Assembly: GCF_056746865.1 (NCBI RefSeq) | Contig: NZ_CM163382.1 | Direction: 5' to 3' (one strand) | Length of the DNA: 64,000 bases | Shown here: piece by piece, positions 1,729 through 43,405 of the stretch | How the letters are laid out: the number at the start of each line of letters is the position of its first letter | Numbering within the stretch: the first letter of the stretch is position 1 | The notes under the pieces: generated by a model | Database searches by the model: none | Told to the model about the DNA's origin: nothing | Seen by the model: only the letters and a program-made list of their open reading frames with translations | Position numbers and translations under genes: made by a program

Positions 1729-4015
<2,287 letters not shown>

Positions 4016-4184
4016 TCAGGAACTTGTTCGCACCTTCCCTAAAAAAAGCAGATGATTTTCATTATTATCGCAGGATAATTGTGCGCATATTTTCCATGCG
4101 GATAAGAATACTTATTCATGGAAATAATAATTTCCAGGTCATCAAGTGAAATCTGTTAACGCAAAGAGTGTTCCACCCTGCCCC

Positions 4185-4682: not shown

Positions 4683-4711
4683 TAACTCCTGATAATAATT
4701 TTCTGACTTAC

Positions 4712-5308
4712 TCATCCAAGAAAGAGCCGTTTGGTTGGAGGATTTAGTGCCTGTTGCTGCTGATAATCCTGCAGAAACAGTGTCGCAATCTGCGCCAACT
4801 TCGCGTAAAACGCACTGACAGGGTTGCGCTGTAATAACTCCAGATAACGATATCCCCACGGCAGCAAATGCGTTTCCAGCAATTGATTCGCTGCGCGTTC
4901 TTTCCCCTCTGCCAGCAAGGCGCTACAGGCAAGCAGCATCAGGCCAAACTGATCTTCCGGTTCATTTATACAGGAATCAAACGTCATTCCCTGATCACGA
5001 AGGAACTTCCGGTACTCGGCAGTGCTGTCCCCCATCAACAGATTATCTTTTTCGAGATATACCGAACCCCAGGGTGGTGCTGGCATTTCACCCTGTCCTT
5101 CAAAAAGAACAGAAAATTGCCAGAGATGCTGCTCCTCATCCGGGATTGACCAGTCAGAGCATAATTCAGCCACCTGGCGGGGATCGCGCCAGGGGTATAT
5201 CTCATCCAATGTCGGCAGACAGTCAAACAGTGCCCGAACTTCAGGACGCGTGGGAGAATAGTAAAACAGGGCACCAAGAATACGCACCAGTACGGCTGGG
5301 GAAGGCAT
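4712..5308 (-). CDS. DmsD/TorD-family Tat-proofreading chaperone
   Basis: VRILGALFYY...PWGSVYL...EPEDQFGLMLL similar to E. coli DmsD; SD AGGAG upstream of the ATG at 5308. Confidence 0.65.
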   Translation of the reverse strand: MPSPAVLVRILGALFYYSPTRPEVRALFDCLPTLDEIYPWRDPRQVAELCSDWSIPDEEQHLWQFSVLFEGQGEMPAPPWGSVYLEKDNLLMGDSTAEYRKFLRDQGMTFDSCINEPEDQFGLMLLACSALLAEGKERAANQLLETHLLPWGYRYLELLQRNPVSAFYAKLAQIATLFLQDYQQQQALNPPTKRLFLG

Positions 5309-5362
5309 GATTAAACACTCCTGAAAGCAGAGGTGGCCGGGCAAACACCGGCCACTCACAGG

Positions 5363-6139
5363 TTACATAGGGATGGTCCAGAGGTTGTAGAAACCGATCC
5401 GACCAACCAGTTCAGCAGCAATAACCACCAGTGCAGTCATCGCCAGCACAGCTTGCCCACTTTTCATGCGTGCATAGAGCAGTGCCCCAATAACACCCAG
5501 CGCCAACAGAATGGCCTGAGCGGTAAACCAGGTGGACTGCGCAGCGGTAATAACGCCATCAGCACTCATTAGCGTGGAAATATAACCCGGACGCAAACAG
5601 AAACTCGCCAGAATCGCCAGTACACTTACCAGCAGCCCCAGACGACGAACGCCAAACAACGCCGCCAACATGCCGCCACCGATAAGTGCAGTTAGCACCA
5701 TCATCATGGTGGTGTAAGAGGTACTCCAGGTCGCTACCGTTGCCAACTGGTAAATACGCGGGATGGCAAAGATAAACACGACTCCAATCGCAGCGGCCAG
5801 CCATACCAGTACTTTACAAAGCATTGCACCACCGCGATTTAACAGCAAACCGAGAGATCCCAGTCCTCCGGCTGCGGCAAAACATGCCGAAAGCACGATT
5901 TCGTTACTCATAGGAGAACTGCCGACACGGAATAGCATATTCAGCGCTCGCAGCGGCTGCCCGACATGAATGGTGCCAAGCACAACACCCACACCAAACA
6001 AGCACATCACCGAAAAGAGACCAATCGCCATACGACGTGGCTCAATTAATCCCATGGCACCGCCAATCAGCAGCAGAATAAACGCCCCCACTGCGCTCTG
6101 GGTAAATACGGTGAAAAAGACCAGTGGTAACTCATGCAT
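5363..6139 (-). CDS. DMSO reductase-type membrane anchor subunit (DmsC/YnfH-like)
   Basis: Polytopic hydrophobic 258-aa protein immediately downstream of the Fe-S subunit; SD GGGAGG. Confidence 0.7.
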   Translation of the reverse strand: MHELPLVFFTVFTQSAVGAFILLLIGGAMGLIEPRRMAIGLFSVMCLFGVGVVLGTIHVGQPLRALNMLFRVGSSPMSNEIVLSACFAAAGGLGSLGLLLNRGGAMLCKVLVWLAAAIGVVFIFAIPRIYQLATVATWSTSYTTMMMVLTALIGGGMLAALFGVRRLGLLVSVLAILASFCLRPGYISTLMSADGVITAAQSTWFTAQAILLALGVIGALLYARMKSGQAVLAMTALVVIAAELVGRIGFYNLWTIPM

Positions 6140-6758
6140 GGCGCACCTCCCGAATGTTCATGATCGCCCCTTCTTTGTCGCCCGTAGGTCGCGCCAGCGG
6201 ATGCGGTTTAATTATCAGGTTAGGATGCGTAAACGAAGCGGCAGGTAACGGTGCGATTTCATTTTCACTGCCATATTTCGCCCGCAATTCGTCGATAGGA
6301 CCAAAATCCAAAGCTCGCTGTGGACAGGACTCAACACAAATAGGCGGGAGATTTTTCTCCAGTCGGTCAAGGCAACCATCACACTTACGCATCACTTTAG
6401 CTTGTGTATCAAACTGCGGTGCACCATAAGGGCAGCGCATTTCGCAGTAACGACAGCCCACACAAACACTGTCATCCACCAGCACCAGGCCATCTTCTTC
6501 GCGTTTGTGCATCGCGCCGGTTGGGCAACCTGCCACACAGGTCGGTTCATCGCAGTGATTGCAGGCAATCGACAAATAGTAAGTGAAGGTATTGTTGTGC
6601 CAGCTTTCACCTTCTTTCACCCAGCTACCGCCACCATATTCATACACGCGGCGCAGCTTCGGTCCGACATCCAAATCTTTATTATCCTTGCAGCTTACCT
6701 GGCAGGTTTTGCAGCCAGAGCAACGCGAGGAGTCAACGTAAAAACCATACTGTTTCAT
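6132..6758 (-). CDS. DMSO reductase-type iron-sulfur subunit (DmsB/YnfG-like)
   Basis: MKQYGFYVDSSRCSGCKTCQVSCKDNKDL... with four ferredoxin Cys motifs. Confidence 0.8.
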   Translation of the reverse strand: MKQYGFYVDSSRCSGCKTCQVSCKDNKDLDVGPKLRRVYEYGGGSWVKEGESWHNNTFTYYLSIACNHCDEPTCVAGCPTGAMHKREEDGLVLVDDSVCVGCRYCEMRCPYGAPQFDTQAKVMRKCDGCLDRLEKNLPPICVESCPQRALDFGPIDELRAKYGSENEIAPLPAASFTHPNLIIKPHPLARPTGDKEGAIMNIREVRHA

Positions 6759-6771
6759 TGCGGATCACTCC

Positions 6772-9207
6772 CTAAGCGCGTTTGATTTCAACCAGGTTGG
6801 TATGTTGCGGGTTCCCTTTCGCCAGCGGCGACGGCAGGTGGCTGGTCAATGTGTTAATACATCCACCCACGTCCACACCGTTGCTGTCCAGTCGGGTCCA
6901 CGCGCCTTGCGGCATTGCCACCACGCCCGGCAGGATGCGCTGTGTCACCTTGCAGGGGATCTCCACCACACCGCGATCGTTGAATACATGGACCATATCG
7001 CCTGATTTCAACTGACGCACGCTGGCGTCTATCGGGTTGATCCAGACTTCATCCGGTACCGCTTCATGCAGCATCAGCACACTGGCATATGTTGAGTGCG
7101 TGTGACCTTTGGTGTGAAAACCGCTCATCTGTAGCGGATACTTTGCTGTCAGACTCTTGTTCAGATGGGACTCTGTCACTATACAAAATTCAGGAACAGC
7201 CGGAATGCGATCTCCTTCCGGTAGTGTCCAGGCTTTAGCCAGTTCCGCCAGAGTGTGCGAGTAAATCTCAATCTTCCCGGAAGGTGTCGTCAGTGGACTG
7301 GCAACCGGATCATGGCGGAAATCAGCAAGGATAATACTGTCCTCATCACGAGTACCTTGCTGATCGATAACCCCCATATTCATTGCAACTTCCCATTCAG
7401 GCAGATATGATCGCTTCTCTTTAACTTGTCCGTAATGCTTCGCCATCCACTCTGCCTGAGTACGCCCCTCAGTAAAACGCTCTCTTACCCCAAGATGCCC
7501 CGCAATATCTGCACAGATATCATAGGTACTGCGTACTTCCCACATCGGTGTGATCGTTTTTTGCATTGCAATCATGTAATGGTGAGAACCGGCTGCATAG
7601 GAACTGTCCACCAGATCCTCGGCTTCTAAGTAGCTAGTTTCTGGAAGAAGGATATCGGCAAAGCGGGCACTGGCAGTCATATGATTATCAATAACCACGA
7701 TAGTTTCGCACAGGCTGTCATCTTCAAGTATTTTGCGTGTACGATTGATATTTCCATGTTGATTCAGAAGTGCATTCCCGGCCTGGTTGAAGAACAGTTT
7801 AATACCGGTTTTCAGTTTATCCGCGCCTTTAACCCCCATAGTGGTGGCTGTCATTTTTTCCGGACTTTGAATCGCATCTGTCCACAGATAGCAGGGGATT
7901 GACACCTTAACGGGATTTTCACCAATCGGCAGAGCAGGAACACCATAAGGTGTTCCGTATGTCCAGTTCCCATTGTTGGTTCCTGGCAATCCAAAATGAC
8001 CCGTCAGGGCAGGAAGTATCTGAACCGCTCTGGAAGTCTGTTCACCATTTGCATGACGCTGTGGCCCCCATCCCTGGGCAATGAAACAGGCCCGAGCTTC
8101 GGCCATTTCACGTGCCAACTGGCGAATACGAATAGCCGGGATGCCACAGATATCTGCCGCCCATTCAGGTGTTTTTTCGACGCCGTCATCACCGTTACCC
8201 AGAACATAGTCTTTATAACTGGCATTTGGTTTCGCCGTTTCCGGAAGGGTGCTACGATCATAACCGACACAATAAGTATTGACTCGTTCTTCGTCGATCA
8301 GATTTTCTTTTATCAACGTGTGTGCAATAGCTGCTACCAGTGCAGCATCGGTTGTAGGGCGAATTGGTAACCATTCAGCATGTTCTGTAACAACAGAGTC
8401 TGTATAGCGCGGATCGATGATAATCACCCGGGCGCCTGATATTTCCAGCGCACGGCGCAGTTCTTCAACTTGCCCACCACCGGACATCCGAGTCTCAGAT
8501 AAATTCAGACCAAAAAAAACCACAAGATCAGAATGCGCAATCTGGCTAAAATGACTGGCAAACTGTACTCCTGTAGCACCATACGTGTAAGATGTGGCGG
8601 TAAAGTTTTGAGCGTTTGAGTAATTATTGTAATACTGCAGAAAACCGCCATTCAGGTTCAATAACCTTTTCCATGCGGGTGTTCCTTGGTTATGATAATA
8701 CGCGCCAGATTGATAATTAAAATAGATTGCTTCATTTCCATATTTTTCAGAAACGCGCTTTAATTCAGCGGCAATAAAGGCTGTGGCCTCATCCCATGAA
8801 ATACGTTTAAATTTCCCTTCTCCGCGTTTACCAACACGTTTCATCGGATATTTAATCCGGTCAGGGCTATAAACACGCCAGCGGCTGGAACGACCACGTA
8901 GGCAAGGTCGAATCTGATGTTCACCAAAAACAGAGTCGTCCTTCGCGTCCTCGGCTTCAATACGAACAATGCGTCCGTCTTTTACGATAACTTTTAATGG
9001 ACAACGACTTCCGCAATTCACCAGGCAAGCACTATGCCTGACGGTTTCAGCATTTTCGTTGGTTTTACCGGTATCCGATGTTTCGGCCCTGACGGTTGTG
9101 GAAAAAGGCAAAGTGATGGCGTTGCTTAGTGCAACGGCAGCTCCCAATTTTGCAGTTGTAGTCACCGCATCACGTCGGGAGATTGTTGTATTTAACAACT
9201 CTTTCAT
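6772..9207 (-). CDS. Molybdopterin oxidoreductase catalytic subunit, DMSO reductase family (DmsA/YnfE-like), with Tat signal
   Basis: N-terminal SRRDAV twin-arginine motif; CLVNCGSRCPL Fe-S motif; TRMSGGG and GWGPQRHANGE segments as in DmsA. Confidence 0.8.
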   Translation of the reverse strand: MKELLNTTISRRDAVTTTAKLGAAVALSNAITLPFSTTVRAETSDTGKTNENAETVRHSACLVNCGSRCPLKVIVKDGRIVRIEAEDAKDDSVFGEHQIRPCLRGRSSRWRVYSPDRIKYPMKRVGKRGEGKFKRISWDEATAFIAAELKRVSEKYGNEAIYFNYQSGAYYHNQGTPAWKRLLNLNGGFLQYYNNYSNAQNFTATSYTYGATGVQFASHFSQIAHSDLVVFFGLNLSETRMSGGGQVEELRRALEISGARVIIIDPRYTDSVVTEHAEWLPIRPTTDAALVAAIAHTLIKENLIDEERVNTYCVGYDRSTLPETAKPNASYKDYVLGNGDDGVEKTPEWAADICGIPAIRIRQLAREMAEARACFIAQGWGPQRHANGEQTSRAVQILPALTGHFGLPGTNNGNWTYGTPYGVPALPIGENPVKVSIPCYLWTDAIQSPEKMTATTMGVKGADKLKTGIKLFFNQAGNALLNQHGNINRTRKILEDDSLCETIVVIDNHMTASARFADILLPETSYLEAEDLVDSSYAAGSHHYMIAMQKTITPMWEVRSTYDICADIAGHLGVRERFTEGRTQAEWMAKHYGQVKEKRSYLPEWEVAMNMGVIDQQGTRDEDSIILADFRHDPVASPLTTPSGKIEIYSHTLAELAKAWTLPEGDRIPAVPEFCIVTESHLNKSLTAKYPLQMSGFHTKGHTHSTYASVLMLHEAVPDEVWINPIDASVRQLKSGDMVHVFNDRGVVEIPCKVTQRILPGVVAMPQGAWTRLDSNGVDVGGCINTLTSHLPSPLAKGNPQHTNLVEIKRA

Positions 9208-9301: not shown

Positions 9302-9560
9302 GTGAGATTTGGTGCTTAGCACAAATATAAATATTTGTGATCATTATCAAAATGTAAATGATAACGCATCTTTATTATCATTTGAGATTAAATATCACGC
9401 AGCGTTAATCTAAGGAAGGTGCGAATAAGCAGGTCATTTCTTCCCAAGTTGACTCGCTGATTAAAATTTCGCGGAGCTGGGCCGATTTTTTTCCCGCAAA
9501 CACATCGAATCAGCCTGTTTAGGCTATTTTTTCCACCATTTCTGGCGTTATTTCCGGTTT

Positions 9561-11847
<2,287 letters not shown>

Positions 11848-11870
11848 TCAGGAACTTGTTCGCACCTTCC

Positions 11871-12465
11871 CAAGAGAACGCAACAGCGCACTTGCTTTGC
11901 CACAGTTGAATTTTGTGCCGTAACGATGTGCAAGCATGTAAGCATAAGGAGTCAAGGTATAGCGTGTTACTTAGTTACTCGGATTAACAATCCCAACGTA
12001 CAGAGCGGCGGATTTAGAGAGTCAGCGCAGTCCCTGCTCCGGCAGTCAGTGGCAGGCGGCGTACTGAAGCAAACCATTATCGATACCGGCATCGGCGATA
12101 CCATCGGCATGCTGATGTCACACGGCAATATTTCTCCCTACATCATGGCGTGGTTGATAACCGTGCTGATCCGTCTGGCAACGGGTCAGGGCGTGGTCTC
12201 AGCCATGACGGCGGCGGGGATTATTAGCGCAGCAATCCTCGACCCGGCAACCGGTCAACTGGTGGGCGTCGACCCGGCGTTGCTGGTGCTGGCAACAGCG
12301 GCTGGCTCCAACACGCTGACCCATATCAACGATGCTTCGTTCTGGCTGTTCAAAGGCTACTTTGATCTGTCGGTGAAGGATACGCTGAAAACCTGGGGTC
12401 TGCTGGAGCTGGTAAACTCCGTGGTTGGCCTGATAATCGTGTTGATCATCAGCATGATTGCATAA
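11871..12465 (+). pseudogene. GntP-family permease, 3' fragment truncated by IS5 copy B
   Basis: C-terminal transmembrane sequence ...[34 protein letters not shown]...[27 protein letters not shown]...; the track ORF 11554-12465 reads through from the IS5 end. Confidence 0.6.
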
Positions 12466-19538: not shown

Positions 19539-20053
<515 letters not shown>

Positions 20054-23883: not shown

Positions 23884-24119
23884 GAAAAGGCATTTACACA
23901 GAATCCTAAACAGGCTCCCGTCACGATACCCGGTATCAATCAATGAAGTCCATTTAATTGATGACGTCGAAGTTATGGCATGTGTGACGATGCTGAGAAA
24001 GCGCCCTTTTTCAGGTGTTTTTTTAATCTTTTTGGGGTTTAAATTCCTATTGATGAACAACGCTTTCATTTACGGGACAATGACCGGCAACGCTCCCGGT
24101 ACACCGGGAGCGTTAGTGT

Positions 24120-25667
<1,548 letters not shown>

Positions 25668-25715
25668 TCACCCGCAACAAAAATGACGTGCACAACGGTT
25701 ACGGGCAGGAAACGG

Positions 25716-26642
25716 TCAGGGGTGTTTCAGTAAATCCTGGCGACGGGGTAACGCTGTCATGGCACCTTTTGCTGTCGTGGCAAGCGCACCACAGCGCTGG
25801 GCCTGTTCGATGACGGATGCGAGTGCCTGCTCACCGGAGGGCATCCCCTCTGCCGCCAGCGCCGCCAGCAGACCTGCCACGAAGGCGTCACCGGCACCGG
25901 TCGTGTCCACACTCACCACCGGTGTTGCCGGGAAGTACAGGTTTTTTCCCTGCCAGCGAGCCATCACGCCATCCTTTCCTTGGGTTACCAGCAGCAGTGC
26001 CAGGGGATAATGTGATGCCAGAACATCGGTTCCCTTCCGGACATCCTGTTCACCGCTGATAAAGAACAGTTCCTCTTCCGATACCTTTGCCACATCCGCC
26101 AGCATGAGCGCCCGGTGCAGACACTCACGCAGTTGCGATGTGCTCTGCCACAGGTCAGTCCGGATGTTGGGGTCAAAGCTGACCCTGCCGCCAGCCTGCC
26201 GGATGTTCTCCATGGCCTGAAACGTGGCGCTGCGGCAGGGCTCTGCACTCAGGGCATTGGAGCAGGTATGCAGCCATTCACCGGCACGAAAGGGCGGTAA
26301 ATCATCAGGGGTAAGGAAAAGGTCTGCCGAAGGGCGCACCATAAATGTGAAGGTTCGTTCACCACCCGGCACCAGCGACACCACCACTGTGGAAGTCCGG
26401 TACAGAGGGTCGGTATGCATATACGCCGTGTCCACACCCTCATCAGCCAGGGTTTTGCGCATAAAACGCCCGAAAGGGTCATCCCCCACACACCCGACAA
26501 ACCCGCTCAGGCCCCCCAGTCGGGCCACGCCCACGGCAACATTGGCAGGCGCACCACCAGGGCACTGCAACAGCGTGCCCGGCTTCTCCGGTAATAAATC
26601 CACCACGGCATCACCGAGACCCCATACTTTTACTGTACTCAT
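25716..26642 (-). CDS. PfkB-family fructokinase (ScrK/CscK-like)
   Basis: GDAVVDLLP...CPGGAPANVAVGVARLGG...DTTGAGDAFVAGLLA ribokinase-family motifs. Confidence 0.75.
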   Translation of the reverse strand: MSTVKVWGLGDAVVDLLPEKPGTLLQCPGGAPANVAVGVARLGGLSGFVGCVGDDPFGRFMRKTLADEGVDTAYMHTDPLYRTSTVVVSLVPGGERTFTFMVRPSADLFLTPDDLPPFRAGEWLHTCSNALSAEPCRSATFQAMENIRQAGGRVSFDPNIRTDLWQSTSQLRECLHRALMLADVAKVSEEELFFISGEQDVRKGTDVLASHYPLALLLVTQGKDGVMARWQGKNLYFPATPVVSVDTTGAGDAFVAGLLAALAAEGMPSGEQALASVIEQAQRCGALATTAKGAMTALPRRQDLLKHP

Positions 26643-26671
26643 TCATACTCCATGATTTTCATCAGTCATAT

Positions 26672-26983
26672 TCAGCGGATGACAGACAGCTCAAACATCG
26701 CCATATCCGTGGTTCCGGCTGGAATTGGATACCAACCCGCATTCCGGAGCAGGGCAGCGAGGGCAGACACATCGCCGGTCAGGGGATGCAGCAACCTCCC
26801 CTGATAATCAAATGCCGCCTCAAGACGTGAGCGGGAAAGATAAAAGCTGCCGGCATCCCCGTTCGGAACCACGACATTACGCCCCTCCCATTTCCGGTCG
26901 CTCAGTATCCGCCAGCACCAGCCCTGCTCCCTGATGGTTTCCAGGGCGAATGTCAGGCGGAACAGGTCAGTCTGTACCGACAC
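26672..26983 (-). CDS. Hypothetical protein (103 aa) within the sugar cluster
   Basis: ORF co-oriented and tightly spaced with neighbours; no family recognised. Confidence 0.4.
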   Translation of the reverse strand: MSVQTDLFRLTFALETIREQGWCWRILSDRKWEGRNVVVPNGDAGSFYLSRSRLEAAFDYQGRLLHPLTGDVSALAALLRNAGWYPIPAGTTDMAMFELSVIR

Positions 26984-27253
26984 ATCACCAGAGCAGGCCT
27001 GCCACAGATACTCCAGCCTGCTGCGGATATCTTTCGCCCCGCTTTCACTCTGCAGGGCTCTGATATGTGCGGGGAAAACGGTGCTGTTTCAGTGCTGTGC
27101 TCCGCCAGCGGTTTAGAAACAGGTTTTCCTGGATTTTTGACGCAATCCGGCCATCCCGGCGGGCCAGATGCAGGGCTACCAGCCCGCACCAGGCCAGATG
27201 TGCGGCTTTCCCTGATACCAGCTGCCCGCTGGCGATATTGTCACTCATGGCGC

Positions 27254-27769
27254 TTACTGGCTGCTGATATCAAAAACCGGTGTTTCTCCGGCGATGACCG
27301 GGCCGGAGAACAGGGTTATCTCCTGGACACGGTCAGAGTCCGCCACAATCACCGGTGTCAGCGTGGACTGTGCTTTCTGCTGAAGTAACGCAAGGTCAAA
27401 CCCGATGACGGGGTCACCGGTGCTGATCAGCTGGCCTTCCTGGGCAATACGCCGGAAACCCTCTCCCCTGAGGTCAACTGTGTTAATACCGAAGTGCACG
27501 AACAGTTCAGTGCCACTGTCGGTGCGGATGGAAAACGCGTGGTTTGTCTCCAGTATTTTACCGATAGTGCCGCTGACAGGAGCCATCAAGGTATCGCCGC
27601 CGGAAGGACGGATAGCAATACCATCCCCCACTATTTTCCCGGCAAACACAGCATCCGGAACCGTGTCCAGAGGGACAATTTCACCGGACAGCGGTGCCAT
27701 CACGCGGGTGACTTCCGCCGGTTTCTCATTTTCACTTATCAGTTGTTTAATCCTGCCCAGTAATCCCAT
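27254..27769 (-). CDS. PTS EIIA component, glucose family (Crr-like)
   Basis: MGLLGRIKQ...VFAGKIVGDGIAIRP...GKILETNHAFSI...ELFVHFGINTV resembles E. coli Crr. Confidence 0.8.
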   Translation of the reverse strand: MGLLGRIKQLISENEKPAEVTRVMAPLSGEIVPLDTVPDAVFAGKIVGDGIAIRPSGGDTLMAPVSGTIGKILETNHAFSIRTDSGTELFVHFGINTVDLRGEGFRRIAQEGQLISTGDPVIGFDLALLQQKAQSTLTPVIVADSDRVQEITLFSGPVIAGETPVFDISSQ

Positions 27770-27832
27770 TGTGCTTTCCTTCATTACGGGTGAACCGAAA
27801 GTACTGCCGTCACCGACGGCAGTGGAATTATT

Positions 27833-29263
27833 TCAGGCCAGCGTCCACAGTGAGCCGTCCGTCAGCACAGCCTCGCCGTGAGCTGCATATAGCGACAACC
27901 GGCGGGTTCCGGGCTGCGGGTAAATACGGCTGGACAGGGTGGCATCGCCATCGTTAACGAACACTTCCACCGATGAACGGTCCAGGAAAACCCGTAGCGT
28001 CAGATATTCTGCGCCAGGCAGCGCGATACTGCGGTAACCGTCCAGCCCCTCATCCGGGTAGTGACGCCAAAGCACCAGCCGTCCTGCCTGGTTATCCACA
28101 TACAGCCGGAGCCCGTCTCCCAGGTGGATGCCGTAATGCTCTGCCTGACTGTCGAGGGTATGCCACGTCAGCACCAGTTCCACGGCCTGTGCGTCCTCAG
28201 CCAGCAACTGCGTGCCACTGAGCCTTACAGGGTGTAACGGCTGGCACGTCCCGCGAAGGGATTCGGCTTCGCGAACCGGACGCTGACACAGACGACCATG
28301 GCGTTCAAAAAGTTCCCTCGGCAGGGTCAGACATCCGGCCCAGGCCTCACGCTTTGTAGGCATCGGGGAGTCCCACATATTCATCCAGGCCATGATGATG
28401 CGCCGTCCGTCCTCCGCGACCAGGGACTGCGGGGCATAAAAATCATGACCGTGATCCAGTTCTTCAAATGCCCCGCTCAGGGCAAAGGCGGCCCCCGGCT
28501 GCCAGTGACCCGGTAAAACTCCGCTCTGAAAGCGGTTGCGGAACCGGTATCCGCCGGGCGTCATCCCCTGCGGGGAGAACATCAGCCAGTGATGGTCGCC
28601 ACAGCGGAAAAAGTCCGGACATTCCCACATATAGCTTTCTCCGGCTGCCGACTGCGCTAGAACCCGTTCCTGGCGCCAGTCCCGCAGGGATGTGCCGCGA
28701 TACAGCAGCACCTGACCGGTGTCAGAGGTATCCCGCGCGCCGATAACCATCCACCAGTATCCCCCTTCCCGCCAGACCTTCGGGTCACGGAAATGCATGA
28801 TGCCTTCCGGTGGCGTCAGCACGCAGCCCTGTTTCTCAAAGTGAATGCCGTCACGGCTGGTTGCCAGACACTGGACTTCGCGGATGATGCTGTCATCCCC
28901 CCGATCCTCCAGACAGAGATGACCGGTGTAGATAAGCGACAGCACGCCGTTGTCGTCCACTGCGCTGCCGGAAAAACAGCCATCCCGGTCATATTCATCA
29001 CCGGGTGCCAGCGCAACCGGCTCATGCTGCCAGTGCAGCATGTCCGGACTGGTGGCATGTCCCCAGTGCATCGGCCCCTGATGTTCACTTGCCGGATGGT
29101 GCTGAAAGAATGCGTGATAGCGACCGCTGAAATAAATAAGCCCGTTCGGATCATTCATCCATCCGGCAGGTGGAGCCAGATGAAAAACCGGGTACCAGGT
29201 ATCACCACGACGGGCGCGGAGTGTATCAAGTGCAACCTGTGCAGAGGCAAGACGCTGTTTCAT
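27833..29263 (-). CDS. rafD: GH32 sucrose/raffinose hydrolase (invertase; RafD/ScrB/CscA family)
   Basis: WMNDPNGL, FRDPKVW and ECPD GH32 catalytic motifs. Confidence 0.8.
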   Translation of the reverse strand: MKQRLASAQVALDTLRARRGDTWYPVFHLAPPAGWMNDPNGLIYFSGRYHAFFQHHPASEHQGPMHWGHATSPDMLHWQHEPVALAPGDEYDRDGCFSGSAVDDNGVLSLIYTGHLCLEDRGDDSIIREVQCLATSRDGIHFEKQGCVLTPPEGIMHFRDPKVWREGGYWWMVIGARDTSDTGQVLLYRGTSLRDWRQERVLAQSAAGESYMWECPDFFRCGDHHWLMFSPQGMTPGGYRFRNRFQSGVLPGHWQPGAAFALSGAFEELDHGHDFYAPQSLVAEDGRRIIMAWMNMWDSPMPTKREAWAGCLTLPRELFERHGRLCQRPVREAESLRGTCQPLHPVRLSGTQLLAEDAQAVELVLTWHTLDSQAEHYGIHLGDGLRLYVDNQAGRLVLWRHYPDEGLDGYRSIALPGAEYLTLRVFLDRSSVEVFVNDGDATLSSRIYPQPGTRRLSLYAAHGEAVLTDGSLWTLA

Positions 29264-30552
29264 AAGCGAACCTCCGTCTGTGCTGTAGCGGTTTCTGCTG
29301 ACGGGGCAGCCGTTTTACGGGTACTGCTCAGGGTGAAAGCCGATAACACGGTGACCGCAAGGACAATACCGCCCAGAACCAGATAGGTGTTCTGGAACCC
29401 CATGCGGTCATACAGGTGACCTGCAAAGGTTGAGAGGAATATCGCCGCCAGTTGTTTGGAGAACTGAAAGCCAATCAGATAAATGGTGGCCGACAGCCGG
29501 GTATCAAACACGCCGGTGATATACTTGAACGCACCAACCAGCAGGAATGGGACTTCAAGGGCATGCAGCATTTTCAGGATCACCACTTCAGTAGCCGTGG
29601 TGGCAAAGGCCGACCCTGTGATGCGGATGGTCATAATCAGACCCGCGACAAGCAGTGTGTTTTTGGCACCAATGCGGTTGATTATCCAGGGGGAGCAGAA
29701 CATGATGATGGCATTGCAAATCTCGCCAGCCGTGGTGGCAAAACCAAATGCCCGGATCCCCGCCTGCGGCGTGTCAAAAAATGCACGGAAGAACGTGGCA
29801 AACTGCTGGTCAAACACGTCATAGACGCAGGCCACCCCAATCATGTAAAGCACGAACATCCACATCTGACGCATACGAAACAGACTGAACACCATTCCGG
29901 CGGAAATCACGGGCGAGTTGGCACCCAGCGCATTCATGACCATCGCTGTCTGACTGGTTCCGGGACGCGCCAGCGCCACCAGAAGGACCAGCAGCAATGC
30001 GCAGCCGGACCCCATCCAGAATACCAGGGACGGATCCACGTTGAAAAGCAGCCCTGCCGTGGTGGCACACAGCGCCCAGCCCAGACAGCCGAACATCCGG
30101 GCCTTACCGTATTCAAATCCGCTGCTGCGGCTGACACGTTCAATATAGGCTTCGATGGCACCGGCTCCCGCAGAAAAAACGAAGCCGATAAAAATCCCGC
30201 CGCTCAGTGCTCCGGCCCAGATGTTGAACCGCAGCAGCGGCGCAAAAACGTACAGAAAGAACGGTGCAAACAGGACCAGCAGCAGGCTGATGATCCACAT
30301 CAGGTGTTTTTTCAGGCCAAGACGGTCTGAGATGACCCCCAGCAGCGGCTGGAAGCTGATGGCAAACAGGGAGAGGCATGAAAAAACAATCCCGGTATCC
30401 GTTTTACTCAGCCCCACAATGTCTGACAGCCAGACGGGCAGAAACGGGAAACAGGTTGCCATGATGAAAAAGTAGAGAAAAAAGAACAGACCAAATATCC
30501 AGAAATCGGGGTTTTTATGAGTACTGACAGTATTCATTATTGTTATCCTCAC
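29260..30552 (-). CDS. rafB: LacY-family oligosaccharide:H+ symporter (raffinose permease RafB-like); start may be the ATG at 30537
   Basis: 12-TM MFS protein with strong similarity to LacY (NPDFWIFGLFFFLYFFI...). Confidence 0.8.
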   Translation of the reverse strand: MRITIMNTVSTHKNPDFWIFGLFFFLYFFIMATCFPFLPVWLSDIVGLSKTDTGIVFSCLSLFAISFQPLLGVISDRLGLKKHLMWIISLLLVLFAPFFLYVFAPLLRFNIWAGALSGGIFIGFVFSAGAGAIEAYIERVSRSSGFEYGKARMFGCLGWALCATTAGLLFNVDPSLVFWMGSGCALLLVLLVALARPGTSQTAMVMNALGANSPVISAGMVFSLFRMRQMWMFVLYMIGVACVYDVFDQQFATFFRAFFDTPQAGIRAFGFATTAGEICNAIIMFCSPWIINRIGAKNTLLVAGLIMTIRITGSAFATTATEVVILKMLHALEVPFLLVGAFKYITGVFDTRLSATIYLIGFQFSKQLAAIFLSTFAGHLYDRMGFQNTYLVLGGIVLAVTVLSAFTLSSTRKTAAPSAETATAQTEVRL

Positions 30553-30591
30553 GGGACTGAGTGCAGGGAGCCGTGACCGGCTCCGGTCCTT

Positions 30592-32718
30592 TTATGCCAA
30601 ACGTTCAAGGGCAATCAGCATGGCGCTTTCCGGATCCAGTACGGGAAGCTGAATACCGGCCTGCGCCAGCCATTCCCCACTGATGTCGGAGGTCTGGTTC
30701 ATCCAGCCGGGCAGCCTGCGCATGGTATGCCCGCCTTCACCGACCAGCTGAATATCCGGATGGTCAACAACACGAAGCCGGTAACGGGCCTGTGGTGCCA
30801 GCCCCGGAAAACGTAGAGCACCCGGCAGGGTGTGATCCGGCATGGCAAGCTGGCTCACCAGGAAGAGCGCCTGCGACTGATCCGGGCTGACCACCCCCTG
30901 CACCTGTGTCGCCGCATCCGGCATATCCACCCGCCATAGGGTGCCCGTGTGGATAAGCTGCCGCCATTCTTTGTAGAGCGAGGCATAGCGGCGGTAACCG
31001 GCGGATTCCTCTTCTCCGGCCGTTACCGGATCCAGCTCCAGTCCCATATGACCGAACAGGGCCGTCAGACCGCGAAAGGCAATGCTGTGCTGCCGGAAGG
31101 TGGCATGGCAGCGATGATGACCGATGTGTGCCCCCATAACCTCCGGCGGGAAAAAGTAACTCATGCCACGCTGTATGGTGCAGCGCTCCAGGGCGTCATT
31201 GTTGTCAGAAGCCCAGAAGCGGTGCGTGCGGGTCAGAACCTCAAAGTCGATACGTCCACCGCCGGAAGCGCAGGACTCAAACTCAACACGGGGAAAACGT
31301 TCGCGCAGGAGATCCAGCAGCCGGTAAAACTGACGGGTCTGCGCGTCCGCCGCCGCCCGACCTTCATGCCCGGCCTGGACCAGCTCGCGGTTCATGTCCC
31401 ATTTCACATAGTCAACTGGGTGTTCGCCCAGCAGCCATAAACAGCGTTCATAAATGTAAGCAAAGGCCTCAGGAATGTTCAGGTTGAGAACATACTGATG
31501 TCTCCCGGTTGGTTGTGTGTACCCCGGCATTGACAGTACCCAGTCAGGATGGCGGCGAAAGAGGTCAGAGTCCGGGTTAATCATTTCCGGTTCCACCCAG
31601 ATACCGAACTCCATGCCGAGTGATTTCACATGGTTAATCACCGGCATCAGTCCGTCCGGATACTTCTGTTCATCCAGATACCAGTCGCCCAGAGCCGCAT
31701 GGTCATCATTGCGTCCCTTAAACCAGCCGTCGTCGATAATGAAACGTTCAACGCCAAGCGCTGCCGCACGTCCGGCCATCTGCATGATGTAGTTCGGGTC
31801 GTGGTCAAAATAAATACCTTCCCAGGTATTGAGGTGCACCGGACGGGGTTTCTGCTCAGGAAAACGGATGATTTCATCGCGCAGAAAACGGTGGTACTGC
31901 TGACTCATACCATTGAGCCCCTCCGGGGAATAGCTGGCGTACAGCCACGGCGTGTACACGGTCTCATCCTTCTTCAGGGCTTTTTCTCCGGGCATCCACA
32001 GTGCTTCCGCCTGGAGGTAACGCCGTCCGTCAGTTTTGACCTCACATTTCATGCGATGGTTGCCACTCCAGCCCAGATGTACGGCCCACACCTCGCCCTG
32101 CTGTTCTGAGAAACCGGGGGCACCGGCAATCAGTGCCGGAAAATGCTCATGGGACGTGCGGCCCCGGCGGTTCTCCAGCACAAAACCGTCATGTGTGAGA
32201 CGGACCCTGTGCGGCTGAAACTCACGAGTCCAGCGTCCGTGGAAGGCCATGACTTCCTCTGCCCTTTCAGCCACAGGGAGCGTGATGGCGAAGCGGTTCA
32301 CCTGCCAGTCCCCTTCACGGAGGTTCGTCAGGGCATGACGCATCTTCAGCACACCGGACGATGTCAGCACCAGTTCACTGACCATGCGCAGACCCGCCAC
32401 TGCATCCTCACTGGTCAGGGTGAGTGATTCTCCGGCCTGTACCACGCTGATGGTACGGAACACAGGGGACGCATCCAGCCCGTTGCGGTGTCCCTCCAGC
32501 CCCGGCGAGCCAAAAAGTCCCGCGCCGTTTTCGGCCATCAGCGTCAGTGGGGTGTCGGTATCCAGACGACCATTCGCAACCGGCCTTTCCAGGCTGATAC
32601 AGTCATCCGGTGAAAAGTGTTTCAGGGTGGATCCCCACCAGACAATCTCTGCATACGGGTGGGTTTTAATAATCAGGTCTGAGTGGGGACTGGTCAGCCT
32701 GCGGTACATCGGTTCCAT
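30592..32718 (-). CDS. rafA: GH36 alpha-galactosidase (RafA-like)
   Basis: 708-aa protein; KWDMNR and CASGGGR segments of family 36 alpha-galactosidases. Confidence 0.8.
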   Translation of the reverse strand: MEPMYRRLTSPHSDLIIKTHPYAEIVWWGSTLKHFSPDDCISLERPVANGRLDTDTPLTLMAENGAGLFGSPGLEGHRNGLDASPVFRTISVVQAGESLTLTSEDAVAGLRMVSELVLTSSGVLKMRHALTNLREGDWQVNRFAITLPVAERAEEVMAFHGRWTREFQPHRVRLTHDGFVLENRRGRTSHEHFPALIAGAPGFSEQQGEVWAVHLGWSGNHRMKCEVKTDGRRYLQAEALWMPGEKALKKDETVYTPWLYASYSPEGLNGMSQQYHRFLRDEIIRFPEQKPRPVHLNTWEGIYFDHDPNYIMQMAGRAAALGVERFIIDDGWFKGRNDDHAALGDWYLDEQKYPDGLMPVINHVKSLGMEFGIWVEPEMINPDSDLFRRHPDWVLSMPGYTQPTGRHQYVLNLNIPEAFAYIYERCLWLLGEHPVDYVKWDMNRELVQAGHEGRAAADAQTRQFYRLLDLLRERFPRVEFESCASGGGRIDFEVLTRTHRFWASDNNDALERCTIQRGMSYFFPPEVMGAHIGHHRCHATFRQHSIAFRGLTALFGHMGLELDPVTAGEEESAGYRRYASLYKEWRQLIHTGTLWRVDMPDAATQVQGVVSPDQSQALFLVSQLAMPDHTLPGALRFPGLAPQARYRLRVVDHPDIQLVGEGGHTMRRLPGWMNQTSDISGEWLAQAGIQLPVLDPESAMLIALERLA

Positions 32719-32811
32719 AAGACATCTCCGTTTTCGGGTATGCCTTACTGTTGATCCGAATCGTTTCGGATAGCAACCGAAACGATTCGAATTTGTGAGC
32801 GGGATTAAAAA

Positions 32812-33822
32812 TCAGGCGGAGGGAGCAAGCGTTGTCTTGCCAGGATGAAATTCCGGCTGCCAGAGTACTTGTAGCATTTCAGGTGAAACATTCGTGACCA
32901 GCTGGCGTATCATGTCGTCAATCTGACGACCGACGCGATGTCGTGTTGACTGAAGAACTGCAGCCACATCCTGTTCAATAATACTGTCCTGCGGCAGACC
33001 ATCATAAACCACAAGAGAGACGGCATCCTCTCCGGACAGATGACCGGATAACTGCAGCGACATGGCCGCGCCATCACCGATCAGGTCACTGTCGGTAATA
33101 ATGGCCGTCGGGGGAAGCGGAAGTGACATTAACTCAGTCACTGCCTGGAAACCTGAGCGTCGGGTGGGAGAGACCCGGCGTAGCCAGGTCTCAGGCAGAC
33201 CATGTTCACTCAGGGCATCGCGCCATCCCTGACGTCGTGCAGTGACATAGGCACGGGAGTTGTCCTCACTCAGCAGGGCAATTCGCTGATGGCCCAGGGC
33301 AATCAGGTGCTGTGTGGCCTGCCAGGTTCCTGCATGGTTATCAAAGTCAAACCAGGCACAGGGAAGACCGGACGGCACCTGACCGAGTGCCAGAAACGGA
33401 ATACCGGCCTCCTGCAGGTGTGTAAGACGCGGGTCATTATCCATCGTGTGCGCCACGATAAGGGCATCAACCCGGCGGCTTTCGACCAGACGCATATAGC
33501 TGTGGCTGTCAGCCCGTTCATCATCGGCTATCAGCAGTAAGTCAATATCATGGCGGGCCAGTTCCCGGCTGATACAACTGACCATATCCACAAACACACT
33601 ACTGCTGAACAGTACAGCATGTTCAGGGAAGACCAGGCCGACCGCATCGGTTTTACCGGTTTTGAGACGTCTTGCCAGGGTATTCGGGCGATAACCACGA
33701 CGCCGAGCTTCCGCTTCTACACGTGCACGGGTCGAAGCGGAAACGTCCGAAAATCCGCCAAGCGCCCGGCTGACTGTGGTGACAGAGATCCCGAGTTCGG
33801 CGGCGATAGCCTTGAGTGACAT
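32812..33822 (-). CDS. rafR: LacI-family transcriptional repressor (RafR-like)
   Basis: N-terminal HTH LKAIAAELGISVTTVSRAL plus periplasmic-binding-fold effector domain. Confidence 0.8.
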   Translation of the reverse strand: MSLKAIAAELGISVTTVSRALGGFSDVSASTRARVEAEARRRGYRPNTLARRLKTGKTDAVGLVFPEHAVLFSSSVFVDMVSCISRELARHDIDLLLIADDERADSHSYMRLVESRRVDALIVAHTMDNDPRLTHLQEAGIPFLALGQVPSGLPCAWFDFDNHAGTWQATQHLIALGHQRIALLSEDNSRAYVTARRQGWRDALSEHGLPETWLRRVSPTRRSGFQAVTELMSLPLPPTAIITDSDLIGDGAAMSLQLSGHLSGEDAVSLVVYDGLPQDSIIEQDVAAVLQSTRHRVGRQIDDMIRQLVTNVSPEMLQVLWQPEFHPGKTTLAPSA

Positions 33823-34156
33823 ATTTTCTCCTGCGGATAACTGAACAGCCCTGTCCCTGATGCGGGTGATCCGGGCAACAAACCTGACAGAGACGCCTGC
33901 ATAAGTGGTCGCGCTGTACCAGTATGAGCCTCCATCATCCTGATTTGTGTATTAACTTTCAATACCGGAGGACGATTTGATTACCGGTTGTTAGCAGGAG
34001 TGCGAATATTAGACCGACGGTGGAGATCTAAGACTCAGTGAGCATAGCGATACACTATATTACTGTAATTAAGCCAGTAAACTTCCTGTTCACTGGCTTA
34101 AACGCTAATGATGTATGCAGTTGAACAAGCTTTTAAACTAATGATTAATTGATATA

Positions 34157-35245
34157 TAGACTGGCCCCCTGAATCTCCAGACAATCAATATCACTTAAAT
34201 AAGTGATAGTCTTAATACTAGTTTCTAGACTAGTCATTGGAGAATAGATGATTGATGTCTTAGGGCCGGAGAAACGCAGACGGCGTACTACACAGGAAAA
34301 GATCGCTATTGTTCAGCAGAGCTTTGAACCGGGAATGACGGTCTCCCTTGTTGCCCGGGGATGGGGAGTAAGCTTAGTCAGCCGTTGTCTCCGGGTGTCG
34401 CGTGCGCAGTTGCACGTCATTCTCAGACGAACCGATGACTGGAAAGATGGTCGCCGCAGCCGTCACTCAGATGATACGGATGTGCTTCTCCGTATACACC
34501 ATGTTATCGGAGAGCTGCCCACGTATGGTTATCGTCGGGTATGGGCGCTGCTTCGCAGACAGGCCGAACTTGATGGTATGCCTGCTATCAATGCCAAACG
34601 TGTTTACCGGATCATGCGCCAGAATGCGCTGTTGCTTGAGCGAAAAACCGCTGTACCGCCATCGAAACGGGCACATACTGGCAAAGTGGCCGTGAAAGAA
34701 AGCAATCAACGATGGTGCTCTGACGGGTTCGAGTTCCGCTGTGATAACGGAGAAAAACTGGGGGTCACGTTCGCGCTGGACTGCTGTGACCGTGAGGCAC
34801 TGCACTGGGCGGTCACTACGGGCGGCTTCGACAGTGAAACAGTACAGGACGTCATGCTGGGAGCGGTGGAACGCCGCTTCGGCAGCGAGCTTCCGACATC
34901 TCCAGTGGAGTGGCTGACGGATAATGGTTCATGCTACCGGGCTAATGAAACACGCCAGTTCGCCCGGATGCTGGGACTTGAACCGAAGAACACGGCGGTG
35001 CGGAGTCCGGAGAGTAACGGCATAGCAGAGAGCTTCGTGAAAACGATAAAGCGTGATTACATCAGTATCATGCCCAAACCAGACGGGTTAACGGCAGCAA
35101 AGAACCTTGCAGAGGCGTTCGAGCATTATAACGAATGGCATCCGCATAGTGCACTGGGTTATCGCTCGCCACGGGAATATCTACGGCAGCGGGCCAGTAA
35201 TGGGTTAAGTGATAACAGGTGTCTGGAAATATAGGGGCAAATCCA
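34157..35245 (+). mobile_element. IS2 deletion derivative (1,089 bp instead of ~1,331 bp)
   Basis: IS2 ends TAGACTGGCCCCCTGAATCTCCAGACAA... and ...CTGGAAATATAGGGGCAAATCCA; internal deletion between two TTGCCCGG repeats. Confidence 0.85.
34248..35234 (+). CDS. IS2 InsC(1-37)::InsD in-frame fusion transposase created by the internal deletion
   Basis: [37 protein letters not shown] joined directly to [21 protein letters not shown]... (InsD). Confidence 0.8.
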
Positions 35246-35440
35246 ATGGCGCAGATACGCTTGCGGATCGATACCATTCAGACAGCAGGTCCGTTCACTA
35301 CCGTAATCGCTGCCGAAGAACACATTGATTGCCCCTCAATAATCCTGCCGTCAACGTCAAAATTGCTGGTCGGGCTCGACTTATTTAATTGTGTAAACAG
35401 GGCCTCTCAGCGAAAGGCCCTTATGCATCACCTGACGTCG

Positions 35441-37812: not shown

Positions 37813-38559
37813 TCATTCATCTTCAAATGGGTTAATAATAATAACATCTCCACCTGTTCTGGAACTTTGTGAAACTTCCTCTGTTCTCAGAACAGGCACT
37901 ATTACAGCCTTATTATTGATATAAAAAATCGGAATATGAAAAGTACAAAATCCTGTACTACGAATCTGATGTCGCCTCACTGTTTCTTTCGTACCATACT
38001 CAATCAACTCATCTATCGGCAGGCAAACTGAATTGCAAAAGTCAAAAAAATAATCCCCAAAAACACTGGTTTTAATCAGAATGGTTTTATAAAACCCTCC
38101 TGCACGATTCAGGGTATGGGAAACTTTTCTGTTCGTGTAAATACAAATTGCCTTCTCAACTTTATAATATTCCAGCATTAAGGTCGCATTCTCTTTAATT
38201 CCCTTTTTCTCTGCAACTCCCATAGCATTTCTGGTGCTTTCATGAGGAAATATCTTTCTATCGAGAACATCATATTCATATTTGATATGCGATTTATAAA
38301 TGCTATGAAAAAACTCTCCTTTTGTTATTTCAGGCTTTGTCCGTTGCACAAATGGTTCCTCATTAAAAAACTGACGTAGCTTATCCTCTATATCAGTTAT
38401 AGCAGCAATATTTTCATTTATCCTGTTTAAAACAGGAGCCCCTAGCTTTAAACACTCTTTAATCGCTGCTGAAAATGAGCATTTTTTTAAATGCTGATAC
38501 TTTTTAATTACATCAGCTTCATATGTTTCTGCAAGAGAGAAAGAGACACGTTTCATCAT
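37813..38559 (-). CDS. Hypothetical protein with N-terminal ribbon-helix-helix-like domain (248 aa)
   Basis: N-terminus MMKRVSFSLAETYEADVIKKYQHLKKCSFSAAIKECLKLG has the beta-strand/helix pattern of RHH (CopG/Arc) domains; the remainder is unassigned. Confidence 0.45.
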   Translation of the reverse strand: MMKRVSFSLAETYEADVIKKYQHLKKCSFSAAIKECLKLGAPVLNRINENIAAITDIEDKLRQFFNEEPFVQRTKPEITKGEFFHSIYKSHIKYEYDVLDRKIFPHESTRNAMGVAEKKGIKENATLMLEYYKVEKAICIYTNRKVSHTLNRAGGFYKTILIKTSVFGDYFFDFCNSVCLPIDELIEYGTKETVRRHQIRSTGFCTFHIPIFYINNKAVIVPVLRTEEVSQSSRTGGDVIIINPFEDE

Positions 38560-41942: not shown

Positions 41943-42041
41943 GAAAATTTACCTCAATAATTATAGTAAACAATACAAGAACCAAGTGCATCAACAATAC
42001 CCATCAATTGTACACAATTCGTACAGCAACCAGGAACTCCC

Positions 42042-43358
42042 TCACCTTCTGCCAAACAGATTGACAACATTATTGCCTGTTTGCTGTTGATAGTTATTAA
42101 CCCGGTCCTCCCAGATCTCAAGTGCTCTGCGTTTTTCTGGCAAATAATCGTATCGATCATAATGTTTTGAACTGACATCGTTCAACGCATGATTTTGAAT
42201 ACGATCGCGGATTTCCTTACTGATCCCAGCTTCTCCCATTAACGTTTTACAGGTCCGACGTAAGTCACGTGCTGTAAAAATTTTAAAGTCAGGATTAAAA
42301 GCCCGGAAATACATGATAGCGCGAGCCAGACTGTCCGTACGAACCGGACGCTTACCATTAGTCGAAAGTGGAAAAATGTAAGGGCTGGATTTTTCTTTTG
42401 TTAACTCCTGCACACAGGATAATTCCTGTAATGCTGATTCAGTCAACGGTATCAAATGCTCTCGTTTATTTTTAGAGACATCAGCAGTCACCAGCAGCGT
42501 TTTTTGTTGAAAATCAACATCACACCACTGACTGGCGATCATTTCGAAAGGACGTTGCCCTCCGGTATAGATACAGAATCGGATCAAATGTTGCATCAAT
42601 AATCCAACGTTGGTTGCTTCAGCAAAATGTTCCATTAGAAAACGCAACTCTTCAAGTGTCAGCCAGGTATCACCGACTTTTTCAGCAGATGACTGTTTCG
42701 GTATCACTGACACCGGATTTGCCTCCAGCCCAAAAGTAATCCCTACACTTGTGTTCATCGGATCGTTATCTGCTTTCAGTCCATAGTTAAATGCAGCCAT
42801 CAGGTAAGAACGGATCCGGTTAGAGTGAACCACAGCACCGCGCTGAATGATCCCGGCCAGGATATGTTTAATCTGTCCGGAAGTCACATCTTTAGCTTTA
42901 GTTTCACGGGGGATCACTGTATAGCATTCATTTTCAAGGCGTTTCAGAACATCCTGCCATGTCCTCTTATTATCAATTTTCATTTTGTTAACATAACCAT
43001 GAATCAATGCTTCAAATGAGCCCTGTGATTGATGGAGTTGTATCCGCTGCTGTTCTGCAAACTGTTGTCGTTCCAGTTCTGCCTGGGGATCCTTTCCTTC
43101 AATGAGCCAGGCACCATACTTTTTTGTCAGTTCATTCGCTGTGGCCAGTTTCATCTCAGGCCATATACCCAATTGAATGAATCTTTCTTTTTTCCCTTTT
43201 TCCACGTAATAGCGGAAATAGAAAATCTTGCTGCCAGAAGGCTGAACTTTGACACCAAGTCGTCCAGTGCCACGTTGAGAGCTGTTGCTCCAGACATAGA
43301 ACGATGTCTTTTTTGCTTTCAATGCTCGGATGGCTGTTTCAGTAAGATTGACGGCCAT
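42042..43358 (-). CDS. int: P4-type tyrosine integrase
   Basis: 438-aa protein with N-terminal arm-binding domain (KIFYFRYY...) and C-terminal tyrosine-recombinase domain; adjacent to the tRNA-derived attachment core. Confidence 0.85.
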   Translation of the reverse strand: MAVNLTETAIRALKAKKTSFYVWSNSSQRGTGRLGVKVQPSGSKIFYFRYYVEKGKKERFIQLGIWPEMKLATANELTKKYGAWLIEGKDPQAELERQQFAEQQRIQLHQSQGSFEALIHGYVNKMKIDNKRTWQDVLKRLENECYTVIPRETKAKDVTSGQIKHILAGIIQRGAVVHSNRIRSYLMAAFNYGLKADNDPMNTSVGITFGLEANPVSVIPKQSSAEKVGDTWLTLEELRFLMEHFAEATNVGLLMQHLIRFCIYTGGQRPFEMIASQWCDVDFQQKTLLVTADVSKNKREHLIPLTESALQELSCVQELTKEKSSPYIFPLSTNGKRPVRTDSLARAIMYFRAFNPDFKIFTARDLRRTCKTLMGEAGISKEIRDRIQNHALNDVSSKHYDRYDYLPEKRRALEIWEDRVNNYQQQTGNNVVNLFGRR

Positions 43359-43405
43359 AGAACCTCTTTTCTAAACCAGTAACAATCAGAATAACTCGTG
43401 ATTTT

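Follow-up and report, generated by a model that had tools for sequence, protein, structure and literature searches.

The closest described system for the element analyzed here is IS2 of the IS3 family (IS2 group), in which transposition requires the binding of OrfAB to both the right inverted repeat (IRR) and the left inverted repeat (IRL), while OrfA represses the weak promoter PIRL (PMC3299598). The two ends of IS2 are not equivalent: the 42-bp IRL serves as a recipient-only end and the 41-bp IRR as the donor end, and PIRL has been located by its TGAT at IS2 bp 48-51 (PMC3299598). Regarding the transposase, the DNA-binding domain has been assigned to residues 13-58, with an HTH at residues 30-51, followed by a leucine-zipper-like coiled coil at residues 73-100 (Lewis et al., 2011, PMC3219604). 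Binding and transposition are reduced or lost when single residues are substituted in helix 3 of the HTH or within the coiled coil (PMC3219604), and dimerization was mapped to residues 58-105 in work by Lei and Hu, as it is cited in that paper (PMC3219604). The HTH and leucine-zipper segments are likewise required in the related element IS911 (PMC2909936).

In the window, by which we mean the whole stretch of 64,000 nucleotides under analysis, an IS2 of 1089 bp occupies positions 34157 to 35245 on the plus strand, with IS2 1-194 joined directly to IS2 437-1331. Alignments were made with IS2A of K-12 (1331 bp) and with the IS2 of pSTEC174, the closest intact relative found, and against both references the only gap was one of exactly 242 bp, all remaining differences being point changes. 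The missing segment may be written as IS2 195-436 or, alternatively, as 203-444, with copies of the repeat TTGCCCGG at 195-202 and 437-444. Over the retained 1089 bp, the element is approximately 96% identical to the K-12 IS2 and approximately 99.3% identical to the pSTEC174 type, and it is 95-99% identical to most E. coli copies of IS2, a level of identity expected of an iso-form. The features of the element and its immediate flanks are as follows.

34152 to 34156, unstranded: left flank ATATA, on the raf side
34157 to 34198, plus strand: IRL, 42 bp, starting TAGACTGG, an exact match to an IS2 IRL
34204 to 34212, plus strand: weak native extended -10 promoter PIRL (TGATAGTCT), with the same sequence as in intact IS2
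IS2 bp 39-48, just upstream of PIRL: OrfA operator
34345 to 34358, plus strand: deletion junction, the extended repeat CCCTTGTTGCCCGG running from 34345 and encoding L-V-A-R at the hybrid HTH
35205 to 35245, plus strand: IRR, 41 bp, ending in CAAATCCA, an exact match to the IS2 IRR
35246 to 35250, unstranded: right flank ATGGC, on the side of the YagK island, not a duplicate of the left flank

The exact ends at 34157 and 35245 are the only IS2 ends in the window. The IRL differs from that of K-12 solely by a T at position 29, which is common to intact copies of the pSTEC174 type. A promoter scan based on consensus did not call PIRL, which is uninformative because this outcome is expected with a weak promoter.

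The surviving TTGCCCGG 8-mer lies at 34351-34358. In IS2 of the pSTEC174 subtype the repeat is longer, with CCCTTGTTGCCCGG at one end and CCCTTATTGCCCGG at the other matching at 13 of 14 positions. Exact direct repeats of 8 bp or longer number 21 in an intact IS2 of the same subtype, compared with 11 +/- 3.4 in shuffled sequences, and among these 21 the TTGCCCGG pair has the best flanking extension; the pair is therefore a favored substrate for slippage, but not a unique one. If the deletion had been placed at random, an 8-bp match at its end-points would be far beyond chance. An assembly artefact does not account for the junction, because the same junction is present in 249 complete E. coli genomes, and single ungapped matches of 99.9% identity to the deleted element are found in many E. 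coli chromosomes. The earlier note, which had been made from the letters of this DNA alone, described an IS2 derivative lacking about 242 bp with intact terminal repeats and non-matching 5-bp flanks, all of which the alignment bears out; its placement of the junction at a repeated TTGCCCGG also holds, although the position that it gave (34355-34362) is 4 bp off.

The deletion leaves a single open reading frame, the product of which was compared with a K-12 OrfAB that we reconstructed (409 aa) and the numbering of which reproduces the published W237, D240, and E342 (PMC3219604). The positions in the window that are relevant to this protein are listed below.

34248 to 35234, plus strand: open reading frame of 328 aa with an ATG start, taken from the list of open reading frames
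34722 to 34724, plus strand: codon of the first catalytic Asp, D159 of the fusion and D240 of OrfAB, by OrfAB alignment and the numbering of PMC3219604
34761 to 34763, plus strand: GGG codon of the lineage-specific change R172G (R253G in OrfAB) in the catalytic core, from the SNP table
34920 to 34922, plus strand: codon of the second catalytic Asp, D225 of the fusion and D306 of OrfAB, by OrfAB alignment
35028 to 35030, plus strand: codon of the catalytic Glu, E261 of the fusion and E342 of OrfAB, by OrfAB alignment and the numbering of PMC3219604

The 328-aa protein consists of OrfAB residues 1-37 followed directly by residues 119-409 and corresponds to RefSeq WP_001354443.1, which is annotated as an 'IS3 family transposase' in SCEC020022. 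The fusion is in frame and the deletion mimics the natural -1 frameshift because 242 equals 3 x 81 - 1. The A6G frameshift window (IS2 409-415) lies inside the deleted 195-436, as do InsC residues 38-121 and the start of InsD, so that the two-frame organization with frameshifting is gone and OrfA cannot be made from this element. The 81 missing residues, Q38-R118, comprise the turn of the HTH (H39-A42 in OrfAB numbering) together with its helix 3 (A43-L58), the coiled coil at 73-100, the site of frameshifting, and the residues with which the OrfB frame begins; all that remains of the three-helix HTH and the leucine-zipper-like coiled coil at the N terminus is helices 1 and 2 (residues 1-37). 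The Pfam profile HTH_Tnp_1 accordingly falls from 70.2 bits over residues 8-87 of InsC to 26.3 bits over residues 8-42 of the fusion, where the match spans profile positions 2-36 of 75 and runs through the junction. The matches to HTH_21 (residues 82-130), rve (151-254, 68.8 bits), and rve_3 (243-308, 66.3 bits) are the same as in the undeleted protein, and the complete DDE triad is retained (D159, D225, and E261). Only approximately three coding changes in the fusion are specific to the lineage, and any signal of selection in them is confounded by conversion from functional copies; at IS2 nt 847 and 849 the window copy has G/G, the pSTEC174 type C/A, and K-12 C/T. A model of the fusion generated with AlphaFold2 without an alignment was unusable (mean pLDDT 37, pTM 0.22).

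Since the segments that were lost are experimentally required in IS2, we infer that the fusion is unable to recognize IS2 ends or to dimerize through the coiled coil and hence does not drive transposition, and the element would thus be a non-autonomous derivative in which the ends are intact while the transposase is probably defective. The in-frame protein of 328 aa joining InsC to InsD, and the removal of the frameshift window together with most of InsC, had been proposed previously and hold on exact alignment; the proposal that the N-terminal HTH of InsC was joined to InsD stands for helices 1 and 2, but not for the turn and recognition helix (39-58) or the coiled coil (73-100), which were lost.

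Taken together, the most probable reading, which we hold with good though incomplete confidence, is that this element is a defective IS2 that has been inherited and recombined with its island rather than spread by transposition. A single recA-independent deletion, presumably by slipped mispairing, would have occurred between two short direct repeats which, by coincidence, code for V/I-A-R in two HTH-like motifs, one in the orfA frame and the other in the orfB frame, and the loss of 242 bp would have joined the frames as the natural -1 frameshift does. What is left in place includes both inverted repeats, the weak promoter PIRL, the ribosome-binding site with the start codon, and the DDE core; the product, without OrfAB 38-118 and with no OrfA beside it, would show neither specific end binding nor coiled-coil dimerization. 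The element would then pass down with the genomic island, mainly as a block of IS2 homology or a recombination anchor, and recombination with other copies of IS2 at this block would swap flanks, integrate large segments, and sometimes restore the full length. The anatomy, distribution, copy number, and mosaic SNP patterns on which this reading draws were observed directly.

To count the deleted allele, we used a 46-bp junction probe designed so that intact IS2 cannot seed a match. It detected 258 places in 249 of 5426 complete E. coli genomes (approximately 4.6%), all of which were chromosomal; carrier genomes have a median of one and at most three deleted copies, and two records labelled as 'plasmid' also match the probe and have the same raf context. 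In total, IS2 is present at 23,202 places, distributed over 4838 genomes. The weakest match to the junction has one mismatch (the L019 SNP type described below), and the deletion was found in none of the K-12-type copies, which form the majority of IS2. No match to the junction was obtained in any GTDB species-representative genome, and only four metagenome contigs contained it. The assembly index contains the protein WP_001354443.1 in 3526 blocks. Of the 30 deletion-bearing chromosomes listed, ten have the deleted copy as their sole IS2 place, where it is still single, and the others carry up to 22 IS2 places, again with a single deleted form in each. Context and flanks were inspected for approximately 30 of the 258 places, and all of these lie in the raf/YagK island neighborhood, with a constant junction between raf and IRL or the variant of the L019 type. 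The open reading frame is intact in almost all deleted copies, which is uninformative because copies that are approximately 99.9% identical have had no time for decay. A literature search yielded no description of the deleted variant; although undescribed so far, it is an unremarkable deletion allele of an element that is well known.

The island around the element is a mosaic. From the left, the window contains the remnant of a type I restriction system, a cassette resembling dmsABC that is enclosed by nested IS copies, lutABC-dld-lldP, fragments of IS elements together with a group II intron, and the raffinose operon; the deleted IS2 follows, to the right of which are a YagK/Gp2/AlpA/integrase module and then nfeF-nfeR-aer-ebg. 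A 69.2-kb chromosomal insertion carrying the raf operon has been described in strain Sanji (PMC6392093). The raffinose utilization cluster of the window (approximately 23900-33822, minus strand) encodes a LacI-type regulator (32812 to 33822), alpha-galactosidase, a LacY-like permease, a GH32 invertase, a crr-like EIIA, a kinase, and a carbohydrate porin, and the IRL of the IS2 lies 334 bp upstream of the regulator gene. Further to the left, a 2464-bp direct repeat with 99.6% identity is present at 1576-4039 and 9408-11871, each unit being an IS5-family element (ISKpn26-like) that is split by an IS3-family element (ISEc31-like). Between the two units, at 4185-9207, is a DMSO-reductase-type cassette with an 811-aa molybdopterin oxidoreductase, 4Fe-4S proteins, and a DmsC anchor, and the arrangement resembles a composite transposon; in QL57EC, only one nested-IS copy is present and the cassette is absent.

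Position 19539 is a mosaic breakpoint, to the left of which lut-dld-lldP is found in the window and in QL57EC, while a type I restriction-modification system is found at the equivalent place in SCEC020022 and in the Salmonella contig CP101360. From there to approximately 23900, an IS3-family element is split by a group II intron (ltrA reverse transcriptase/maturase) and adjoins an IS1414 fragment; an AL1L pseudoknot is annotated for this intron-split element in homologous genomes. The site at approximately 38196-38204 is occupied by an IS1 in SCEC020022 (L017 24049-24816), which is absent from the window. A tyrosine recombinase/integrase gene at approximately 42000-43400 marks the right end of the island beside nfeF (yqjH); the integrase gene is split by an IS3-family element in AP022173, and nfeF is annotated as frameshifted in SCEC020022. 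Homologous islands vary by insertions of IS903B, IS26, and IS5 beside or into the deleted IS2, and in three of them (L009, L012, and L016) the IRL has been removed.

The junction on the raf side, AATTGATATA followed by TAGACTGG, is shared by nearly all deleted copies and also by 19 chromosomes that carry an intact 1331-bp IS2 there; these 19 intact copies may be ancestors or revertants. The other side is variable. Among the copies inspected, the intact tip of the IRR adjoins at least seven different sequences, including ATGGCGCAG in the window, TAAAGAATG, CCAACCCTC (phoH), TTCATCAAT, GTGGATATC, AATAGACAT, and ACGATCACA. The ATGGC flank of the window lies 96 bp inside the sequence that abuts the IRR in genomes of the L013 type; the TAAAG and ATGGCG junctions are offset by 96 bp in the same sequence. 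A second SNP type of the deleted element, L019 (WP_001300102.1, 136 blocks), has the identical deletion and the ATGGCG junction, with a different left flank; it differs from the window type at 12 sites, 8 of which are within the first 212 bp. Two of the intact copies (L022 and L024) also have the ATGGCG junction and possess the private markers of the deleted lineage, 69C, 847G, and 849G, together with a private 286G inside the segment that the deleted form lacks and with K-12-like conversion patches.

Copies with altered flanks generally contain foreign blocks of IS2 SNPs (L005, L023, L025, L027, L041, and L044), and homologous recombination between IS2 copies is the favored explanation for the flank changes where such blocks are visible, while some of the IRR junctions show no foreign SNPs that would prove recombination. 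Adjacent deletions mediated by transposase were considered for the varied IRR flanks and are disfavored by the foreign blocks in L005, L023, L025, L027, and L041; either an adjacent deletion or recombination may lie behind the phoH junction and the 96-bp offset. An arrangement in AP021946 illustrates the recombinational route, with island, deleted IS2, approximately 37 kb, intact IS2, and raf in this order and the two IS2 copies in direct orientation, as would be expected if a circle with one IS2 had integrated through homologous recombination and the crossover had fallen to the left of position 195. Integration of this type explains the left flank of the L019 type and also provides a route back to the full length.

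Several arrangements at this junction are recorded as separate observations. In the genome with the phoH junction (L018, QL57EC NZ_CP172108.1, 20915-35600), the IRR abuts a second, divergent phoH-pgaDCBA-dgcT block, which is inverted relative to the native phoH-efeBOU, and the strain has two different phoH genes; an inversion with duplication or foreign DNA may be the origin. Decay is visible in some copies at the raf junction: a deleted copy in AP022173 (L027 23770-24761) has a 1-bp deletion and a 6-bp insertion and is annotated as frameshifted, and a copy of intact length in strain 673 (L025 4152-5380) has an internal stop.

Among the alternatives, occasional movement in trans of a non-autonomous element by the OrfAB of intact IS2, similar to a MITE-like passenger, is unlikely, but deserves attention first. 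Both ends are the same as those of intact pSTEC174-type IS2, intact IS2 is also present in most deletion-bearing genomes, and a copy in another genome (L028) has new flanks on both sides. In AP022173, moreover, two deleted copies lie approximately 33 kb apart in direct orientation, TAAAG is duplicated in the flanks outside the pair, and 59 genomes have the empty site, as reconstructed, without a break, from which it follows that a genuine IS2 insertion occurred there. However, both of these copies share the same foreign right-hand SNP block, and the arrangement is equally explained by recombination and conversion; either gene conversion passed the deletion from one copy to the other, or the deleted element itself truly moved once. 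The only perfect 5-bp duplication seen around a deleted copy, ACGAT, is that of a metagenome contig (L044), and we rejected it as proof of transposition because the copy is chimeric, with the deleted lineage on the left and K-12-like sequence from approximately IS2 847, because the contig has a coverage of 1.4x, and because an ordinary IS2 sits at the exact site in 172 complete genomes, one of which is a strain with its only deleted copy elsewhere. We take this duplication to be a conversion product or an assembly chimera. None of the approximately 30 inspected deleted copies has a trustworthy target duplication of its own, and there are just 9 extra places in the 249 genomes. IS3-family transposases act preferentially in cis, which also counts against mobilization by a helper. 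Rare helper-driven movement of the deleted element is possible, and inheritance with recombination remains the reading that we prefer.

A recurrent origin, in which the deletion is a hotspot event with several independent origins and the 1089-bp form a repeatedly made isoform, appears slightly less plausible again. The quality of the repeat (13/14 matches and the best extension of the 21) and the presence of the deletion in two SNP types with 12 differing sites would suit such an origin, as would the private markers of the window type in intact copies at the same site. On the other hand, both SNP types have the identical junction of IRR with ATGGCG, the differences of the L019 type cluster left of the deletion junction as expected from a recombination crossover, and the deletion is absent from the K-12-type copies that make up most of the 23,202 IS2 places.

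It is considerably more doubtful that the truncated protein is a regulator or a dominant-negative inhibitor of IS2, acting through mixed inactive complexes that its remaining middle and catalytic parts would form. Transposases with internal deletions are inhibitors in other systems, residues 119-409 are retained, and the protein may be expressed from PIRL, free of repression by OrfA from the deleted copy itself. The coiled coil, which is the mapped determinant of IS2 dimerization, is nevertheless lost, and the listed deletion-bearing chromosomes have 1 to 22 IS2 places with a median of approximately 4.5, versus an overall median of 3, a crude comparison without phylogenetic correction. These similar medians give no sign that the IS2 load is suppressed in deletion-bearing chromosomes.

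The junction itself invites a more speculative thought. The two repeats encode V-A-R in the HTH of OrfA and I-A-R in a second HTH-like motif of the OrfB frame, and the junction re-creates an HTH-like sequence with a pattern of the A-R-x-x-G-V-S type, so that residual or altered DNA binding by the hybrid HTH may exist. By linking the second helix of the HTH of OrfA to the turn and helix 3 of the OrfB-frame motif, the deletion could conceivably have created a DNA-binding hybrid domain and, with it, a functional transposase independent of both frameshifting and OrfA or a domesticated regulator kept with the raf island; we regard this as highly improbable. Were such a protein to act as a transposase or a regulator, it would be of modest interest for the IS3 family, as a natural bypass of frameshift control, and no finding here suggests that it does.

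The least credible alternative is an active, frameshift-independent transposase that recognizes the ends through the hybrid HTH as a natural analogue of the engineered fused-frame OrfAB: the in-frame fusion, DDE triad, both ends, and PIRL are all intact, the hybrid keeps its HTH pattern, and the deleted copy yields no OrfA repressor (the role of OrfA being that in PMC3299598), but the recognition helix and the entire coiled coil, in either of which point mutations impair or abolish function (PMC3219604), are gone, there is approximately one copy per genome in 249 genomes even where it occupies the only IS2 place of the chromosome, the window copy has no target duplication, and the inspected copies have not dispersed beyond one island neighborhood. 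Of the three fates that the earlier note had offered, a constitutive transposase is not supported, being in conflict with the published structure-function data and with the copy-number census, an inactive variant is the reading favored here, and a regulatory variant has found no support.

These results have a practical consequence for annotation. WP_001354443.1 and its close variants are annotated as an 'IS3 family transposase' in hundreds of E. coli genomes, and most likely represent a defective allele; the 328-aa product is not to be counted as active IS2. The locus is also a clear natural example of a presumably dead IS shaping a genome as portable homology, in which recombination at the deleted copy accounts for the flank swaps, the integration of a segment of approximately 37 kb, and the apparent reversion to full length beside the raffinose operon.

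In comparison with known systems, the deleted element shares its IRL, IRR, PIRL region, start codon, and DDE core with IS2 (IS2A and the pSTEC174 type), from which it differs by lacking IS2 195-436, separate orfA and orfB, and the A6G window and by having R253G, with the window copy also lacking a 5-bp duplication. The engineered A7G fused-frame OrfAB of Lewis and co-workers likewise has one frame and dispenses with ribosomal frameshifting (PMC3219604, PMC3299598); however, it keeps all 409 residues and is an active transposase, whereas the natural fusion is without the recognition helix and coiled coil. The HTH and leucine-zipper mutants of IS2 and IS911 and the OrfA deletion derivatives are affected in the same segments, namely, helix 3 of the HTH and the leucine-zipper-like coiled coil (PMC3219604, PMC2909936), but are laboratory constructs, while the deleted IS2 is a natural allele in approximately 4.6% of complete E. 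coli genomes in which the frames have been reconnected. The role as an inhibitor considered above would have its counterparts in Tn5 Inh and in the KP repressors of P elements. MITE-like elements and P elements of the KP type also combine intact ends with an internally deleted transposase gene, and, in contrast to these, the deleted IS2 has not been amplified and stands at approximately one copy per genome.
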